Source: Dictyostelium discoideum
Taxonomy: Eukaryota
Length of the DNA: 64,000 nt
Direction of reading: 5' to 3'
Assembly (NCBI GenBank): GCA_000004695.1
Contig: CM000150.2
Span: 3,264,001-3,328,000, forward strand
A model generated the notes under the pieces. It ran no database searches and was not told where the DNA came from. It saw nothing but the letters and a program-made list of their open reading frames with translations. Positions within the stretch are counted from its first letter, which is position 1; each line of letters begins with the position of its first letter. Below are positions 3,640 to 50,155 of this stretch, in pieces. Both the position numbers and the translations under genes were made by a program.

Positions 3640-4805
3640 ATTAGATATACTTCAGGAATTGCTTCTGCAGTCCAAGGTGCCCAAGCAGCTGGTATTTCTA
3701 CAATTGATCTCTATGCATTCTTATGTAATCAATGGTAGGATAATAATAATAATAATTATTTATTTATTTTTATTTTCTTTTTTCCTAATCTTTGTTTTTT
3801 TATTTTTTTATTTATAGCTCAGGTAATAGTCCATCATCTTCAGCAATCCAAAGTATTGTATCTCAACTTCAAAATGATGGTGTTTCATACAATATGTTAT
3901 GGATTGATGTTGAACAATGTGATGGATGTTGGGGTGATTTAGGTGACAACGCAGCATTTGTTCAAGAAGCCGTTGAAACTGCCCAAAATCTTGGTGTAAG
4001 TTTATAATACTATATTAATGAATATTATAGTGTCGGGGGAACTCAGGAGAGGAATAGAAAGAATTGAGATTTTAAATATTGGTAATGGATTTCAATTAAC
4101 CATAGGATACAATTTTATTATTTTATTATTTTATTATATTATTATTTTATTATTTTATTTTTTAAAGGTTAATGTTGGTGTTTACAGTTCAATTGGTGAA
4201 TGGAGTCAAACTGTAGGTAATTTAAGTGGTTTAGGTGTTGACTTATGGTATGCTCACTATGATAATAATCCATCATTCTCTGATTCAAGCTTTTATGAAT
4301 TTGGTGGTTGGACTTCACCAACTATGAAACAATACGCTGGTAATGGAAATGAGTGTGGTGTTAGCGTTGATATGAATTTCTTTGGTTCTGGAACATGTTC
4401 AGCATCAACTGGTTCAGGTTCAGGTAAATTTTTTTTTCTATTTTTTTTTTTTTTTTTATTCTTTTTTTAAAAAAAAATTACTAACCATAACAACTCTTGG
4501 TAATCAGGCTCATCATCAGGTTCATCATCAGGTTCATCATCAGGTTCATCATCAGGTTCAGGTTCATCATCAGGTTCAGGTTCATCATCTGGTTCATCAT
4601 CAGGTTCAGGTAAATTTTTTTATTTTTATTTTTATTTTTATTTTTATTTTTATTTTTTTTTTTCTTCTTTCGGCAAACGATTACTAACCGCAGCAACTCA
4701 TTACCACCATCAGGATCAGGCTCATCATCATCAGGATCAGGCTCAGGTTCAGGTTCATCATCAGGCTCAGGTTCATCATCAGGATCGGGATCAGGTTCAT
4801 CATAA
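3307..4805 (+). CDS. GH25-family (Entamoeba/Chalaropsis-type) lysozyme with signal peptide and C-terminal Ser/Gly-rich tail; 7 exons (3307..3397, 3458..3542, 3645..3734, 3818..3995, 4168..4423, 4508..4609, 4714..4805)
   Basis: Signal peptide MNKLISLLLVCLVAIALVNA; motifs 'MLWIDVEQCDGCWGD' and 'VDLWYAHYD' typical of GH25 catalytic domain; all introns GTAAAT/GTAAGT/GTAGGA...AG, phases hand-checked; last two exons encode (GSSS/GS)n repeats, stop TAA 4803..4805. Confidence 0.7.
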
Positions 4806-4904
4806 GCAGTTGAATTGGATGTTAAATAAATTTTAAAATTTAAAAAAAAAAAAAAAACAAGGATTATTACCAATTTTTTAAAATTTAAAAAAAGTACATC
4901 TTTG

Positions 4905-5845
4905 AATGTTGAAAAATAAAAAAAAAGTTAAAATATAAACAATATTGAATAGTAATAATTTTACTTTTATTTTTTTTTTATTTCATTATTTTATAATAAT
5001 TATATTTTTTTTTTTTTTATTTTTTTAAAATAAAAAAAAATAAAATAATAGGATAGGATTTGCAATTAAGCAGTCCAAACCTTAAGATTTGAAGTACCAA
5101 TATTTGTAATTGTTAATCTTCCACCACCAAAACTTCTACTGAATTGACCTTTGCTATGAATATCATTATCTTCATCAGGACTTAATCCACATTGAAATCT
5201 TACACGTCCATTTCCACCTCCAACAACTTCAACATTAACTTGAGTAGATCTTGGCCATGCCCATGTTGGAACGCCACTTACTTGACTACCACTATTGATA
5301 TAATACGGACTAATTTAATTTATTTAATGATAAAAAAAATAAACTATTAATATAATAAAAATATTAATTTAATTAAATAATTATAATTATAATTTACCCT
5401 GCCATTTTTTTAAATTTAATAATATTTTAGTTTATTTAAAAAAAAAAAAAATTCTTTATATAAAAAAAATAATTGAAAATGTTTGTTAATTAATTAAATA
5501 ATAATGATAATAATAATAATAAAAAAAAAAAATAAATCTATTTATTTTCATACCAACAAAAAAAAAAATTAAAAAAATAAAATAAAATAAAATATCTTCC
5601 CAAACATGTGGACCTTTGATTTGTGTTTTAAAAAGAAAATGAGTGTTAATGAAATAAAAAAAAAAAAAAAAAAAAACTTGGCTATTTGTTTTTTTATTAT
5701 TTAATTTTATTTAATTGTTACTTTTTTTTTTTTTTTTTTTTAACAATTGAAATAAGGTATATAGTTATAAGATTATATCTCTTCAAATAAATTAACTTTC
5801 AGAGATTATTAAATTTAACAAATTGAATTGAATTAAATTGAACTT
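4905..5845. repeat. Copy A of ~0.93 kb direct segmental duplication (copy B at 8256..9190), >90% identical by eye, contains a complete small gene plus its upstream flank
   Basis: Long collinear identical stretches e.g. 'gttaaaatataaacaatattgaatagtaataatttt', 'ttgcaattaagcagtccaaacctta', 'cttggccatgcccatgttggaacgccacttacttgactaccactattgatataata', 'ataaggtatatagttataagattatatctcttcaaataaattaactttcagagattattaaatttaacaaattgaattgaattaaattgaa' present in both copies. Confidence 0.9.
5066..5405 (-). CDS. Small 88-aa protein, paralog A (exons 5398..5405 and 5066..5309): MAGPYYINSGSQVSGVPTWAWPRSTQVNVEVVGGGNGRVRFQCGLSPDEDNDIHSKGQFSRSFGGGRLTITNIGTSNLKVWTA; family not recognised
   Basis: ATGGCAGG|gtaaatt...aaattag|TCCGTAT; 8-nt first exon then 244-nt exon in phase, TAA stop at 5066..5068; identical architecture in copy B. 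Confidence 0.55.
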
Positions 5846-6164
5846 TTATTTTTTTTTTTTTTTTTTTTTTTATTTTTTTTTTTATTTTTTTATTTTTTTT
5901 TTTTTGGTCTAAGTACAGTTTCACAACTTGGTCTACGTTTGTATTCACAATGATGATCAAAAGTCTTGAGTAATAATTCTGACGTTGTTGCTGAACTGAA
6001 ATTCAATGATTCTACTTAAAAAAAAAAAATGAAATTTTAAAAAAGACAAGATAATAATAAAAATAATTAAAAAAAAAAATAGATTTATTTTTTTATTTTA
6101 TTATATATATACATATTTTTTATATATATTGTAATTTAACTAAATTGAAACAAAAAATATTAAA

Positions 6165-7230
6165 TTAATTTAAATACGGTATTGGAATTAAATCAATTCT
6201 TTGTTTGAGAGCATAAAGGTCAATAGTTAATGGACGAGCATTTGCTGGTGGATTTGGAAAGAATAAAGAGTTTGGTTGAATGGTAATGGTGAAGATTGGA
6301 TTATTTGGTGTATTATTTGGTGTATTATTATTATGTAAAAAACCTGTAATTGGTGTTTGTTGATTTGATAATCTTCTATATTTATTTATATCACGTGCTG
6401 TAAATCCTTCAGAACCAAATGAAATAATTGCTGATGGATTGACAATACTAACACTACCATCAAAAACAACTAAACAAAACTTTTTTAAATTACTAACACC
6501 TAAAGGCCATAATTGAAGTAAAAAAACTATGTTTACATCAGTATCAAAATAATCGGTACATTTGTTGAATGATTGAGTTTTAGTTTGTGCTTTATAATTT
6601 ACTTCAAAGATTAATAAAACACGTCTTGGATATTGACTTGGTACACTTTCATAGCTTCCATCTGGATTATAAACTGTATTCTCATCAATAACAAGATCAG
6701 AACTTCCTGAACCAGTAATATGACCTTGAGCTCTGCAATAAATTGATATTAATTCATTCATTTCAAATACTACTCTTCCATGATATACTGATTCACTTAA
6801 TTTATTAATTATTACTAAACCATTTAATAAAAATGCATTTTTATTATAACTATGATCATTTAAAAAAGTTTTTGAATTTATATTCTTTTGAACTACAAAA
6901 CCTTTATAACCATATTTTAAAAGTTCAATATTCTAAATTTATTATTTAAAAATAAAAATTATTAATAAAATTAATATTTAATTTATTATTATTAATTTTA
7001 ATTAAACAACTTACATTTCTAATAAAAATTATTTTCTCTTCGTTGGGTCCCATTTTTGTAATATCTAAATATCTTAAATTGTTCATTTTGATGACACGAT
7101 GTGAAGGAATTCCATTGACTAAATCATCTTCTACCTTTTCTTTTTCATAATCTGAATTATTTTTTTTAAATTTTGAAAAAAATTTCATTTGTGTATTTGA
7201 TCTATTTTCAAATCCAATAGAAGATATCAT
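6165..7230 (-). CDS. Hypothetical 327-aa protein, 2 exons (7015..7230, 6165..6932); no family recognised
   Basis: ATG at 7230 (MISSIGFENRSNTQMKFF...); donor gtaagt after ...IIFIRN (7014..7009), acceptor aaatttag at 6933/6934; exon 2 continues in phase 0 into ORF 6165..6761 (…MNELISIYCRAQGHITGSGSSDLVIDENTVYNPDGSYESVPSQYPRRVLLIFEV…PYLN*). Confidence 0.55.
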
Positions 7231-7834
7231 TATTAATATACAATTAATTATACAACAATAAAAACAATAGAAAAAAGAAGTATCATAGAATAAAAAAAAA
7301 AGTAAATATAAAAAAAAAAAAAAAAACAAATAATAATTATTAGAATTACATATTTCTATATTAATTAAAAATTTCTAATATTTACCTTATATATATATTT
7401 TAAATGAATTGAAATAAATTTGTTTTTGTGAAAAAAATTAAAATAAAAAAAAATAGAAACAATAATTAAAATAAAAAAAAAAATTAAAATAAAAAATAAA
7501 AAATAAGATTAACGCAATTTCATATGAAAAACCAATTTTGTAAATGATTTAAAATGGTAAATAATAAAACAAAAATAATACAAAACAAAAGACAAATGTA
7601 GAAAAAACAAAAAAAAAAAAAAAATAAAAAAAAAAAAAATAATATTTTATACTGACCATAATATGTTAAACATGTTCTAAATAAAATAATTTTTTTGTTT
7701 TCTAAATTTTCTCTATTTTTCTTTAATCGAATTCAATTGAATTATTTATTATAATTCTTCATCATGATTTGAATCTTTAGTACCATCAATTGTTGATTAA
7801 ATTGAATTGTAGCTAATTTTCTATACAATTCTGT

Positions 7835-8007
7835 TCACATAATTTTAAATGGTGAACCTTCAAAACCACCATCTTGTTGTAATTCTGATGTTTCTTGTTG
7901 TTTTAAAATACCAACCCCAAAATGATCACATTTTAAATTTGAAACAAGAATAATTGTTAATTTACCAGAAATGTAAATTTCATATTTTGAAAACAATAAA
8001 AATTTAC
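7835..8007 (-). CDS. C-terminal exon of a LAMTOR2/p14 (roadblock/LC7 domain, Ragulator) -like protein; N-terminal exon(s) lie upstream (to ~8220) but were not resolved
   Basis: Translation GKFLLFSKYEIYISGKLTIILVSNLKCDHFGVGILKQQETSELQQDGGFEGSPFKIM* aligns by eye with LAMTOR2 C-terminus (…[51 protein letters not shown]…); acceptor cattag at 8008/8009; candidate N-terminal exon 'MPIFFDTVDAIVSQKWFEF' near 8150..8215 cannot be spliced cleanly. Confidence 0.5.
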
Positions 8008-8255
8008 CTAATGAAAATTGATATTAATATATGTTTGAAAAAAATAAAGATTAAAAAAAAATAAAAAAAAAAACACACATTATTTTTTTATTTTTATCAC
8101 ATATAAACAAATAATGTCATTAAATAATTTAATTAAAATTTATAAAACAACACAAACTCAAACCATTTTTGAGATACAATTGCATCAACAGTATCAAAAA
8201 ATATTGGCATTAAAATGGGATTGGCAACAATCTATTCAATTGAAACGATTGAAAA

Positions 8256-9190
8256 TGTTGAAAAATAAAAAAAAAAAGTTAAAATATAAACAATATTGAA
8301 TAGTAATAATTTTATTTTTTTATTTCATTATTTTATAATAATTATATTTATTACTTTTATTTTTTTTTTTTATTTTTTTAAAATAAAAAAAATAAAAAAT
8401 AATAGGATTGGATTTGCAATTAAGCAGTCCAAACCTTAGGATTTGAAGTACCAATATTTGTAATTGTTAATCTTCCTCCACCAAAACTTCTTCTGAATTG
8501 ACCTTTGCTATGAATATCATTATCTTCATCAGGACTTAATCCACATTGAAATCTTACACGTCCATTTCCACCTCCAACAACTTCAACATTAACTTGAGTA
8601 GATCTTGGCCATGCCCATGTTGGAACGCCACTTACTTGACTACCACTATTGATATAATATGGACTAATTTAATTTATTTAATGATTTAAAAAATAAAATA
8701 TTAATATAATAAAAATATTAATTTAATTAAATAATTTATATTATAATTTTTACCCTGCCATTTTTTTAAATTCAATAATATTTTAGTTTTTAAAAAAAAA
8801 AAAAAATTATTTATATAAAAAAATAATTGAAAATTTTTGTTAATTAATTAAATGATGATAATAATAATAATAAAAAAAAAAAAAAAAAACTATTTATTTT
8901 CATACCAACAAAAAAAAAAATAAAATATCTTCCCAAATATGTGGACCTTTGATTTGTGTTTTAAAAAGAAAATGAGTGTTAATGAAATAAAAAAAAAAAA
9001 AAAAAAAAAACTTGGCTATTTGTTTTTTTATTATTTAATTTTATTTAATTGTTACTTTTTTTTTTTTTTTTTTTTTTAACAATTGAAATAAGGTATATAG
9101 TTATAAGATTATATCTCTTCAAATAAATTAACTTTCAGAGATTATTAAATTTAACAAATTGAATTGAATTAAATTGAATATTTAATTAAA
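8256..9190. repeat. Copy B of the ~0.93 kb direct segmental duplication (copy A at 4905..5845)
   Basis: See copy A; differs by small indels in oligo(A/T) runs and scattered substitutions. Confidence 0.9.
8420..8761 (-). CDS. Small 88-aa protein, paralog B (exons 8754..8761 and 8420..8663); differs from paralog A by 2 amino acids (S->R, L->P near C-terminus) plus synonymous changes
   Basis: Same ATGGCAGG|gtaaat...attag|TCCATAT structure; stop TAA at 8420..8422. Confidence 0.55.
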
Positions 9191-9262
9191 TTGAATTTAT
9201 CATAAAGTGATTTTATAGTTATGAGAGTTGGAAATGAGTAATTCTATTTTAAAAACCATAAT

Positions 9263-9294
<32 letters not shown>

Positions 9295-9350
9295 TATAAA
9301 ATATTGTTTAAAAACATTAAATTTTGATAACATAATTTTATAAAAGTATA

Positions 9351-9587
9351 TTATATTAATGAATTGATGGGATCAGATAAACCAGTATTGAAAGATAATT
9401 CATAATAAGATATTGATGAATCTTCATCTTGTATACCCAATGTAAATGATTTGCAATCAATTGGTAAATTATTTAAATTATTAAACATTTTTTTAATACT
9501 TTCAACACTCCAAATACTTGTTGATTTACAAGGTATAACAATATTATAGTTCTTTTTTTTTTTTTTTTAAAAAAAATTAAATAGATT

Positions 9588-9621
<34 letters not shown>

Positions 9622-9836
9622 CTAAAATGTAATATTTAAAATCTTACATTTGGATTATTTAAATTTTCAATTGCATGTAAATAAATTAATTGGTCATTAT
9701 GTTTAAATTCCACTTTATTCCATTTCTTTAAAAAAACTAAATCAACATAAATTTGATAAGCTAAATGAATTTGAATCATATAATGAGTTTCACTATATTT
9801 ATTCAATAAATCTTCAAATAAATTTTCTAATGACAT
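9351..9836 (-). CDS. Hypothetical 129-aa protein, 2 exons (9648..9836, 9351..9551); no confident family assignment
   Basis: ATG at 9836 (MSLENLFEDLLNKYSETHYMIQIHLAYQIYVDLVFLKKWNKVEFKHNDQLIYLHAIENLNNPN), donor gtaaga at 9647, acceptor after oligo(A) at 9552/9553, exon 2 NYNIVIPCKSTSIWSVESIKKMFNNLNNLPIDCKSFTLGIQDEDSSISYYELSFNTGLSDPINSLI*; six-frame ORF start at 9845 uses TTG so true ATG is 9836. Confidence 0.5.
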
Positions 9837-10160
9837 TTTAAACAAACAAAAGTGGGAGGTTTTCTTTTGTGGTTAACAGATCTGTTGCCGTTGAACTACA
9901 ATTTTTTTTTTTTTTTTTTGTTTTTTAAAAAAAAAAAATGAAAAAAAAAAAAAAATATTAAAAAAAATAATTTATCATTTTTTGTGTGTCACCACTTTTT
10001 TTTTTTTTAATTTCCTATTTTTTTTTTTTTTTTAAATTTTTTATATTTCATTATTTTTAATTAACTACTTTATTTATTTTTTTATTTTATTTCTTTTTTT
10101 TTTTCTCAAAAAAAAAGAAATAAAGAAATAATTAATATCTACATATTTTATAGATATCAT

Positions 10161-50084: not shown

Positions 50085-50155
50085 GGGGAGATCCGAGAAT
50101 CGAACTCAGGACGCTACCACCCAAAGGTAGCATTATACCACTTAACTAATCTCCC
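50085..50155 (-). tRNA. tRNA-Pro (anticodon UGG), 71 nt without CCA
   Basis: Minus-strand GGGAGATTAGTTAAGTGGTATAATGCTACCTTTGGGTGGTAGCGTCCTGAGTTCGATTCTCGGATCTCCCC: 7-bp acceptor stem GGGAGAT/ATCTCCC, D-arm GTTA…TAAT, anticodon stem CTACC/GGTAG with loop TTTGGGT (U33, anticodon TGG, G37), T-loop TTCGATT. Confidence 0.8.

Follow-up and report, generated by a model that had tools for sequence, protein, structure and literature searches.

A direct segmental duplication carrying two DUF8244 genes in Dictyostelium discoideum: evidence for gene conversion and a possible origin by template switching

Introduction

Two nearly identical blocks of ~1 kb lie in direct orientation on chromosome 1 of Dictyostelium discoideum AX4, and each carries a small gene. 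The locus raises the question of how these copies came to lie on either side of DNA that resembles neither of them, how long ago this happened, and whether a gene was broken in the process. According to the original prediction, the duplication is evolutionarily recent and may have disrupted or rearranged a LAMTOR2-like gene, the N-terminal exon of which was expected at the left boundary of the second copy. Tandem and segmental duplications with templated insertions at their breakpoints, i.e., events of the FoSTeS/MMBIR type, are established in human, yeast, and Drosophila genomics.

Here, we present an analysis of a 64-kb stretch of this chromosome (the window), in which the four gene models concerned (DDB_G0295751, DDB_G0270604, DDB_G0270600, and DDB_G0270602) are all annotated already. 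The loci used for comparison include the orthologous locus of D. citrinum (L001), the same locus in a lineage ~5-10% diverged in DNA (L004) and in an independent de novo Nanopore+Illumina assembly (L010), and a different locus in D. cf. discoideum (L006).

Results and Discussion

BLASTN confirmed that the two blocks, R_A and R_B, represent a genuine direct segmental duplication. They are collinear, on the same strand, and 93.2% identical with gaps counted (950 columns, 28 mismatches, 16 gap openings, E=0), and the block coordinates proposed earlier were accurate to within 3-12 bp (Table 1). Among the aligned bases only, identity is 96.8%, with 29/909 bases differing. The two starts are offset by ~3.35 kb, and BLASTN detected no third copy in the 64-kb window. 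Each repeat extends from ~437 bp upstream of the ATG of its gene to ~161 bp downstream of the stop codon, with the upstream end of R_A being ~85 bp short relative to R_B and to copy 2 in L004.

Table 1. Features of the duplicated locus, in positions of the window
Feature	Position	Strand	Basis or remark
Repeat copy A (R_A)	4905..5842	-	BLASTN vs 8254-9178; nearer the 295-aa neighbor gene
DUF8244 gene copy A, DDB_G0295751, 83 aa	5066..5405	-	Gene model; exact match to DDB_G0295751 (P0060)
Inserted segment S, 2,411 bp	5843..8253	-	No match to L001; collinear with a different locus (L006)
Junction J2 region	5846..6082	.	Differs between AX4 and L004
Relocating gene unit, ~1.57 kb (promoter, DDB_G0270600, 3' end)	6083..7655	-	Matches at other loci in relatives
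DDB_G0270600, 327 aa	6165..7230	-	Gene model; 100% identical to P0005
545-bp stretch in AX4 and L010, deleted in L004	7568..8112	.	BLASTN blocks; three-way alignment
DDB_G0270602 main exon, 58-aa orphan model	7835..8007	-	No homologue but itself
SAM-dependent methyltransferase pseudogene fragment, first 48 codons	8114..8259	+	tblastn with the L006 313-aa protein
Repeat copy B (R_B)	8254..9178	-	BLASTN; nearer Sen15
Junction J1	8254..8259	.	Four-way junction alignment (AX4_B, AX4_A, D. citrinum, L006)
DUF8244 gene copy B, DDB_G0270604, 83 aa, R60 and P78	8420..8761	-	Gene model; exact match to DDB_G0270604 (P0059)
Sen15 (tRNA-splicing endonuclease subunit) gene	9354..9872	-	Pfam Sen15, E=2e-15 and 2e-4

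The gene models bear out that the gene in each block is intact and consists of an 8-nt exon 1 and a 244-nt exon 2. In DDB_G0295751, exon 1 (5405-5398, ATGGCAGG) is followed by an 88-nt GT..AG intron (5397-5310) and exon 2 (5309-5066, including the stop codon); in DDB_G0270604, exon 1 (8761-8754) and exon 2 (8663-8420) are separated by a 90-nt intron (8753-8664). The coding sequences differ at four nucleotides, two of which are synonymous (P4 and G65) and two non-synonymous, giving exactly the two amino acid differences that had been predicted, S60R and L78P. Copy A and the four orthologues in the alignment, i.e., all five members other than copy B, have S and L, respectively, at these positions. 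Copy A of AX4 differs from the L004 copies by 4-5 synonymous and 0 non-synonymous substitutions. Both genes retain the same promoter, splice sites, and open reading frame, and the substitution pattern indicates that both are under purifying selection.

Both proteins are 67-78% identical over 100% of their length (E=1e-41 to 3e-31) to four Dictyostelium proteins with the DUF8244 (PF26736) annotation. DDB_G0269702 and the orthologues in D. citrinum, D. firmibasis, and D. purpureum can be aligned with them over the entire length; 40 columns of the alignment are invariant, and the micro-exon gene structure is common to all of these members. The PF26736 label derives from the precomputed annotation of homologues, including the AX4-identical L010 gene and the orthologues, while an hmmscan of the 83-aa protein against the Pfam-A copy used, which probably lacks this model, returned no family at E<=1. 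A profile search for DUF8244 relatives recovered 43 representative proteins, including proteins of Acytostelium and Heterostelium. To our knowledge, no function has been assigned to any member. The effect of the rearrangement is two co-oriented doses of a small predicted jelly-roll beta-sandwich protein in which no signal peptide was detected.

Sen15, the conserved right-hand neighbor, anchors the synteny of the locus to D. citrinum, L004, and L010. The gene order in D. citrinum, which is of the ancestral type, is GH31 glucosidase, Sen15, one DUF8244 gene, and the 295-aa gene. R_B is collinear into the 3' flank of Sen15, as is the single D. citrinum copy, and nothing at the orthologous locus of D. 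citrinum corresponds to the segment S between the AX4 copies. S consists of the 5' fragment of a methyltransferase gene, the divergent intergenic region of that gene, and the complete DDB_G0270600, and the order of these components is intact at L006, which is matched at 86-87% by window positions 8259-8053 and 7653-6084. The comparison indicates that S is foreign to the Sen15/DUF8244 locus. The intact L006 protein (313 aa) matches the Pfam families Methyltransf_25/11 and Ubie_methyltran. Based on tblastn, the fragment in S encodes residues 1-17 at 8114-8164 and residues 20-48 (100% identical) at 8173-8259; a frameshift lies between codons 17 and 20, and the junction of S with R_B truncates the gene at codon 48. 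The idea that a gene is disrupted at the left boundary of copy B stands insofar as a gene is truncated there; however, the truncated gene encodes a methyltransferase and lies on the opposite strand, and the sequence is not a LAMTOR2 exon.

At J1, the methyltransferase-derived sequence and the repeat have AATGTT in common (4905-4910 in copy A), a perfect 6-bp microhomology within an imperfect one of ~10 bp (TTGAA[AA]TGTT). The J2 region begins with a tract rich in A/T homopolymers (5846-5905), followed by 111 nt with 34% GC (5906-6016) and an AT-rich spacer. In L004, the repeat begins ~110 bp further upstream, directly at an A-run. J2 has been remodeled differently in AX4 and L004, with ~110-180 bp having no assigned source and the original junction no longer readable. 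The 545-bp stretch of S is homologous to L006 at its ends but not in its center, which contains the DDB_G0270602 ORF.

The high identity of the copies had been taken as a sign of a recent duplication. This dating does not hold. The repeat-insert-repeat layout, with the same J1, is also present in L004, and 12 of 14 informative sites group the two AX4 copies against the two L004 copies, with one supporting the orthologous grouping and one the third grouping (binomial p=8e-5 for the within-genome grouping). Divergence within a genome is 3.2% for the AX4 copies and 5.5% for the L004 copies. The outgroup alignment of the non-coding repeat DNA is 24% diverged and unreliable for polarizing changes. 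As is characteristic of interlocus gene conversion, the paralogues are more alike within a genome than the orthologues are between genomes although the duplication is older than the split, and the converted tract here covers flanks and intron. These patterns show that R_A and R_B are kept alike by gene conversion, and because their similarity is maintained in this way, identity does not date the duplication. The case differs from concerted evolution of young paralogues in that it involves no more than two copies, separated by 3.35 kb, and conversion is incomplete; AX4 copy B, with two replacements at conserved sites, has escaped it.

How did the layout arise? We favor, with moderate confidence, an old segmental rearrangement in which one microhomology-mediated event generated a ~1-kb tandem duplication with a templated junction insertion, followed by homogenization by gene conversion. 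In this model, template switching guided by microhomology, as in FoSTeS/MMBIR, would have taken place during one accident of replication or repair: ~1 kb including the DUF8244 gene would have been copied first, then ~2.3 kb of the methyltransferase/DDB_G0270600 locus, and then, after a return to its start, the same 1 kb again, yielding repeat-insert-repeat. Later, R_A and R_B exchanged sequence by gene conversion, as the site patterns show; in the AX4 lineage, copy A lost ~85 bp from its upstream end and S60R and L78P arose in copy B at otherwise conserved positions, while in the L004 lineage 545 bp of the insert were deleted.

The R-S-R layout, in which DNA from elsewhere occupies exactly the space between the duplicates, is the arrangement found in FoSTeS/MMBIR-type events, and the resemblance extends to the direct orientation, the truncation of a gene by the DNA from another locus, and the short microhomology at one junction. 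Unlike the fresh mutations in which such events are seen, the present one is ancient and fixed, and one of its junctions has since been remodeled. The one-step switch is the most likely reading of the junction anatomy, from which alone we infer it; a 6-bp microhomology and an A-run weigh little in a genome of ~20% GC, in which short microhomologies easily occur by chance.

The main competitor, to which we give some but limited credence, is an origin in two steps, in which the ~1-kb DUF8244 block was first simply duplicated in tandem and 2.4 kb were later captured at or near the joint by end-joining break repair or by insertion of the DDB_G0270600 unit. It arrives at the same final structure, the DDB_G0270600 unit relocates by itself in related genomes, and the extra sequence at J2 fits patchwork filler. 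However, two independent events at the same point are needed, and the genomes examined include no R-R intermediate: L001 has a single copy, and L004, L010, and AX4 are all R-S-R. Moreover, the methyltransferase fragment in the insert is flanking DNA of the donor, for which a self-contained element would have no need.

It is unlikely that the repeat-insert-repeat layout is ancestral to the discoideum/citrinum group and that D. citrinum lost the insert and one repeat by a pop-out deletion of the kind envisaged in the original prediction. Crossing-over can also occur between direct repeats of ~1 kb that convert each other, and the one copy in D. citrinum matches the flank of R_B on one side and that of R_A on the other in collinear order, as a pop-out product would; yet this collinearity is equally expected for a locus that was never rearranged. 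The D. citrinum orthologue of DDB_G0270600, which is 91% identical, lies elsewhere, so that an extra copy or a further move would be required. While unequal crossing-over between R_A and R_B is possible, no deletion or amplification allele from it was found, and the discoideum-clade assemblies examined contain no deletion allele of this kind.

A different explanation centers on a gene in the insert. DDB_G0270600 (exon 1, 7230-7015; intron, 7014-6933; exon 2, 6932-6165) belongs to a dispersed family found only in Dictyostelium and lies at one locus in AX4/L004, at another in D. cf. discoideum, and at a third in D. citrinum. The unit matches L009 at 91% (window 7626-6082), L006 (7653-6084), L005 (7211-6083), and L007 (6965-6084), with nearly coincident ends at ~6083 and ~7655. 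The locus of the D. citrinum orthologue, the third, has no methyltransferase gene nearby, indicating that DDB_G0270600 moved more than once. DDB_G0270600 might be the cargo or enzyme of an unrecognized mobile gene, possibly a PD-(D/E)XK-type nuclease, whose insertion at staggered breaks or by break repair generates kb-scale flanking duplications. The family would then represent a class of mobile genes not recognized before within the D. discoideum species complex, which may code for a divergent PD-(D/E)XK nuclease, move by break-induced copying, carry along pieces of their former neighborhood (here, 48 methyltransferase codons), and leave kb-long direct target duplications (here, of the DUF8244 gene).

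We regard this explanation as decidedly improbable. The family has invariant P-D-G and E residues, one of nine members matches the Uma2 restriction endonuclease at a non-significant E=0.15, and a paralogue in L005 is likewise bracketed by direct repeats. Against this, DDB_G0270600 had no match in Pfam or the PDB, including no significant fold or profile match to PD-(D/E)XK/Uma2 in Pfam and in a PDB profile search, and its AlphaFold model (pLDDT 35) is unusable. End alignments revealed neither terminal inverted repeats nor target-site duplications at the ends of the unit, flanking repeats are missing at 4/6 other loci of the family, and those at L005 are copies of tgr Ig-domain DNA, of which there are three. 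Also, dragging along donor-flank DNA is atypical for a transposon.

We consider it very improbable that a recent duplication disrupted a LAMTOR2-like gene. The copies are highly identical with only two amino acid differences, and the ORF of DDB_G0270602 has a coding-like GC content (24%); however, the structure is older than its homogenized copies suggest, and the sequence at the boundary of copy B is part of the inserted DNA and not a missing LAMTOR2 exon. The ORF matched neither Robl_LC7 nor any other Pfam family at E<=10, nor did the neighboring reading frames. A phmmer search of all PDB chains returned no LAMTOR2 chain at E<=10 (only nebulin, E~0.5), the sole match among 5.8 billion proteins is the protein itself, and tblastn found no match in L001-L008. 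The first four bases of the model (ATGT) would require an upstream micro-exon. The likeness of the 57-aa ORF to LAMTOR2/Roadblock-LC7 proteins is a loosely similar hydrophobic pattern; compared with LAMTOR2, a Ragulator subunit, it has no statistical similarity and no upstream coding exon, and it is not conserved in the closest relatives. Together with the deletion of the ORF in L004 and its lack of alignment to L006, the Pfam, PDB, and protein searches refute a LAMTOR2/Roadblock identity, and DDB_G0270602 is an orphan ORF that is probably not a conserved gene.

Finally, a mis-assembly of the AX4 reference in this AT-rich, homopolymer-rich and, thus, difficult DNA can be set aside, since the copies differ at many indels in addition to the substitutions and each has a unique flank, the diverged L004 has the same layout, and the long-read assembly L010 reproduces 4.6 kb (window 4800-9400), including both copies, with 0 mismatches and 1 gap, which rules out an artifact.

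Conclusions

Altogether, the whole case is one of ordinary genome evolution. For annotation, DDB_G0270602 is a doubtful orphan model, and the methyltransferase pseudogene fragment is unannotated. For knockouts of DDB_G0295751 or DDB_G0270604, the common promoter and flanks matter in that recombination of the targeting arms may occur at either copy or remove the intervening 3.3 kb. The locus is a clean case, from nature and in an extremely AT-rich genome, of a duplication accompanied by a templated insertion, the mechanism being our inference. Moreover, near-identity of two Dictyostelium paralogues need not mean that they were duplicated recently; here, gene conversion is at work over ~1 kb.

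Results

Repeat copies A and B form a single collinear, same-strand alignment by BLASTN (93.2% identity over 950 columns, with 28 mismatches and 16 gap openings), and no third copy was found by BLASTN within the 64-kb window. Each copy carries an intact two-exon gene starting with the 8-nt exon ATGGCAGG, and the two coding sequences differ at four bases, nt 12, 180, 195, and 233, of which two are synonymous and two cause replacements (S60R and L78P). The original prediction described this direct duplication accurately. An assembly artefact is ruled out because L010, an independent de novo Nanopore and Illumina assembly from the data set of Holland et al. 2025 (PMC12745789; ten long-read genomes, PRJNA1300491), carries both copies and matches positions 4800-9400 of the window with 0 mismatches and one gap. 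Judging by this near-identity, L010 is probably AX2-214. The repeat is real. As genome rearrangements go, it is of an ordinary type, and the reference genome that carries it is well annotated.

Features of the repeat region, with corresponding features at related loci
Feature	Locus	Position	Strand	Description
Ser/Gly coding repeat	window	4486-4817	plus	TCA/GGT; 3' end of neighbouring gene
Repeat copy A	window	4905-5842
Copy A gene, DDB_G0295751	window		minus	8-nt exon 1, 88-nt intron (GT..AG), 244-nt exon 2; 83 aa
A-rich tract	window	5846-5905		expanded
34%-GC island	window	5906-6016		111 nt, at insert/copy A junction
DDB_G0270600	window	7230-6165		327 aa
DDB_G0270600 unit	window	6083-7655		homology ends at ~6083 and ~7655
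DDB_G0270600 unit	L009	7620-9103		D. citrinum
DDB_G0270600 unit	L006	7150-8676		D. cf. discoideum
DDB_G0270600 unit	L005	7978-9145		D. cf. discoideum
DDB_G0270600 unit	L007	7957-9136
Stretch deleted in L004	window	7568-8112		545 bp
DDB_G0270602 ORF	window	7835-8007	minus	58-aa model
Methyltransferase pseudogene fragment	window	8114-8259	plus	first 48 codons only; no annotation seen
Methyltransferase gene	L006	5653-6594		intact, 313 aa
Repeat copy B	window	8254-9178
Copy B gene, DDB_G0270604	window		minus	8-nt exon 1, 90-nt intron (GT..AG), 244-nt exon 2; 83 aa
Direct repeats	L005	6098-6653, 10279-10844		0.57 kb; tgr Ig-domain copies
tRNA-Pro (TGG)	window	50085-50155	minus	ARAGORN and Rfam at gathering score; sole RNA gene found in window

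Exact look-up identified the two 83-aa proteins as DDB_G0295751 and DDB_G0270604, refuting the idea, suggested by a best homology match of 78%, that both genes are unannotated in AX4; the 327-aa protein is 100% identical to DDB_G0270600 of AX4 chromosome 1. The first homology search missed the 83-aa proteins because an obsolete chimeric 438-aa model (P0064) drew both into the 90% cluster represented by the 327-aa protein (P0005), such that an 83-aa query misses its own exact matches. A search of the available literature library for all six gene identifiers and for DUF8244 found no paper. The plus-strand neighbour ending in the Ser/Gly coding repeat is the orthologue of a D. citrinum 295-aa protein that has no Pfam domain; the name GH25 lysozyme, considered for the left neighbour, was dropped because Pfam gave no match. 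In an Rfam scan of 4500-9800, C/D-box matches were sub-threshold only and are explained by the reverse strand of the GATGA/CTGA-rich Ser/Gly-coding repeat at 4500-4810.

Along the corresponding D. citrinum locus (L001), a GH31 glucosidase gene is followed by Sen15, a single DUF8244 gene, a 295-aa gene, and a 269-aa gene. It is collinear with the window but contains no match to 5846-8253, and its one DUF8244 gene is the counterpart of both copies in the window. In that gene (L001 10001-10627), the sequence of the usual 8-nt exon 1 has changed to ATGTCAGGGG, which provides no in-frame GT donor; the annotated model uses another first exon of 14 nt ~370 nt upstream, giving MTITS instead of MAG. 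L004, a locus labelled D. discoideum with a DNA divergence from AX4 of ~6-10%, contains two DUF8244 copies flanking a DDB_G0270600 orthologue, and has the same junction between insert and copy B, adjoining the same methyltransferase fragment. It probably comes from one of the isolates that Holland et al. 2025 describe as genetically diverged from AX4. Because AX4 and L004 have this layout and junction in common, the rearrangement arose once, before the two split.

The insert is foreign to this locus. In D. cf. discoideum, another locus (L006) matches its segments 8259-8053 and 7653-6084 collinearly at 86-87% identity. The first of these blocks corresponds there to the beginning of an intact opposite-strand gene, which encodes a SAM-dependent methyltransferase (Methyltransf_25, E=3e-14; Ubie_methyltran, 8e-16). 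In the window, the reading frame of this gene fragment shifts after codon 17; over codons 20-48 its identity to L006 is 100%, and it ends exactly at the start of copy B. In a four-way alignment, the repeat ends with TTTTTCAACATT. Beyond this point, copy A and D. citrinum run on into the ancestral flank, and copy B and L006 into methyltransferase sequence. At this junction, AATGTT is common to both partners, with TTGAA[AA]TGTT as an imperfect extension of the match. Thus, a gene is indeed truncated at the left boundary of copy B; it is an insert-borne, plus-strand copy of a methyltransferase gene rather than a LAMTOR2 gene.

The junction between the insert and copy A differs between the two genomes. 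Compared with AX4, the repeat in L004 has its start ~110 bp farther upstream, immediately at an A-run that occurs upstream of copy B as well; AX4 copy A lacks ~85 bp at its upstream end, has the expanded A-rich tract, and is joined to the 34%-GC island, which is absent from L004. These differences indicate that the original repeat was ~1.0-1.1 kb and that this junction has been remodelled since. The island has no match at any locus compared except near-identical L010, and the Rfam scan gave nothing there. Its plus strand has C/D-box-like motifs (ATGATGA ... CTGA) without a terminal stem, and the obsolete model P0064 took it as an exon.

The ORF between the copies that was originally read as LAMTOR2-like corresponds to DDB_G0270602. 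It matched no Pfam family at E≤10, only nebulin (E~0.5) among all PDB chains (phmmer, E≤10), only itself in a search of 5.8 billion proteins, and nothing by tblastn in loci L001-L008. Moreover, it lies within the stretch deleted in L004, of which the ends are homologous to L006 and the centre is not. The annotated protein starts with MCK, for which four bases (ATGT) are needed from a presumed upstream micro-exon spliced at 8007. The GC content of the ORF (24%) is coding-like, and the ORF may therefore be a scrap of some gene. We conclude that DDB_G0270602 is neither a conserved gene nor LAMTOR2 and is probably a spurious annotation.

To date the duplication, the original prediction relied on the few differences between the copies. 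We aligned the A and B copies of AX4 with their L004 equivalents, using D. citrinum as the outgroup. Of the informative sites, 12 pair the copies within each genome, one favours pairing by orthology, and one the remaining arrangement (binomial p = 8e-5 versus equal thirds). The two copies differ by 3.2% in AX4 (29 of 909 aligned bases) and by 5.5% in L004, and copies from different genomes by 5.0-5.9%. Given the common layout and junction, independent duplications are not credible; rather, the site pattern demonstrates that the copies exchanged sequence by gene conversion after the AX4 and L004 lineages split. Consequently, the few differences between the AX4 copies do not date the duplication, and its age, like the identity of the intervening ORF, was misread.

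AX4 copy A differs from the L004 copies by 4-5 synonymous and no non-synonymous changes, and all four copies retain an intact start codon, splice sites, and reading frame, indicating purifying selection. S60R and L78P in copy B, which are also present in L010 and not in L004, affect positions that are invariant among the rest of the aligned family members; this copy may be diverging or evolving under weaker constraint. Homologues of the 83-aa proteins carry the Pfam domain DUF8244 (PF26736), and the 83-aa queries had no match in the local Pfam copy. Searching 1.8 billion representative proteins with a DUF8244 profile gave 43 members; among ten that were looked up are proteins from Acytostelium and Heterostelium, AX4 paralogues, and JGI/ENA metagenome sequences. 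AlphaFold confidently predicts a beta sandwich of eight strands (pLDDT 92), and no signal peptide or cupin-like histidine cluster was apparent by eye in the sequence. A small intracellular binding module appears likeliest.

The six AX4 DUF8244 proteins found form three close pairs: the window pair (P0059/P0060); DDB_G0269702/DDB_G0274299 (P0004/P0066) on chromosomes 1 and 2, with 6 of 83 residues different; and DDB_G0286957/DDB_G0287047 (P0017/P0057), with 1 of 82 different, both on a 5.45-Mb record that we take to be chromosome 4. These pairs suggest repeated duplication or conversion within the family. A 2,305-aa protein from a 1.14-Mb ENA contig (P0015) has 29 stretches matching the DUF8244 profile, forming a long tandem domain array.

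Discussion

The simplest account of the repeat-insert-repeat layout would be one microhomology-mediated replication/repair accident. This event would have created a ~1-kb tandem duplication and placed in its joint ~2.3 kb for which the methyltransferase/DDB_G0270600 locus served as template. We infer such a single-step template switch from the structure. It is possible that the layout was instead assembled in two steps, a less simple account of the same structure. It is also possible that the layout is older and was later lost in D. citrinum, which has a single DUF8244 gene and no insert.

DDB_G0270600 has no Pfam or PDB relatives, and its predicted structure (pLDDT 35) is too low in confidence to use for a fold search. 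PDG and E residues are invariant across the family, and the Uma2 nuclease match of one member is non-significant (E=0.15). The gene lies between DUF8244 repeats in AX4, L010, and L004; its homologues adjoin a cellulose-synthase-like gene in D. citrinum (L009, 91% identity) and the methyltransferase gene in D. cf. discoideum (L006, 87%), and more distant paralogues are present at further loci. Each time, homology ends at nearly identical bases, and the ends of the unit have no inverted repeats or target duplications. Elsewhere, direct repeats flank a family member only in L005, where they surround a paralogue located within an array of tgr (Ig_TgrO1) genes; this locus holds three copies of the repeat. 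DDB_G0270600 may be a mobile gene, and the shifting location of its unit is the only thing in the region that is out of the ordinary.
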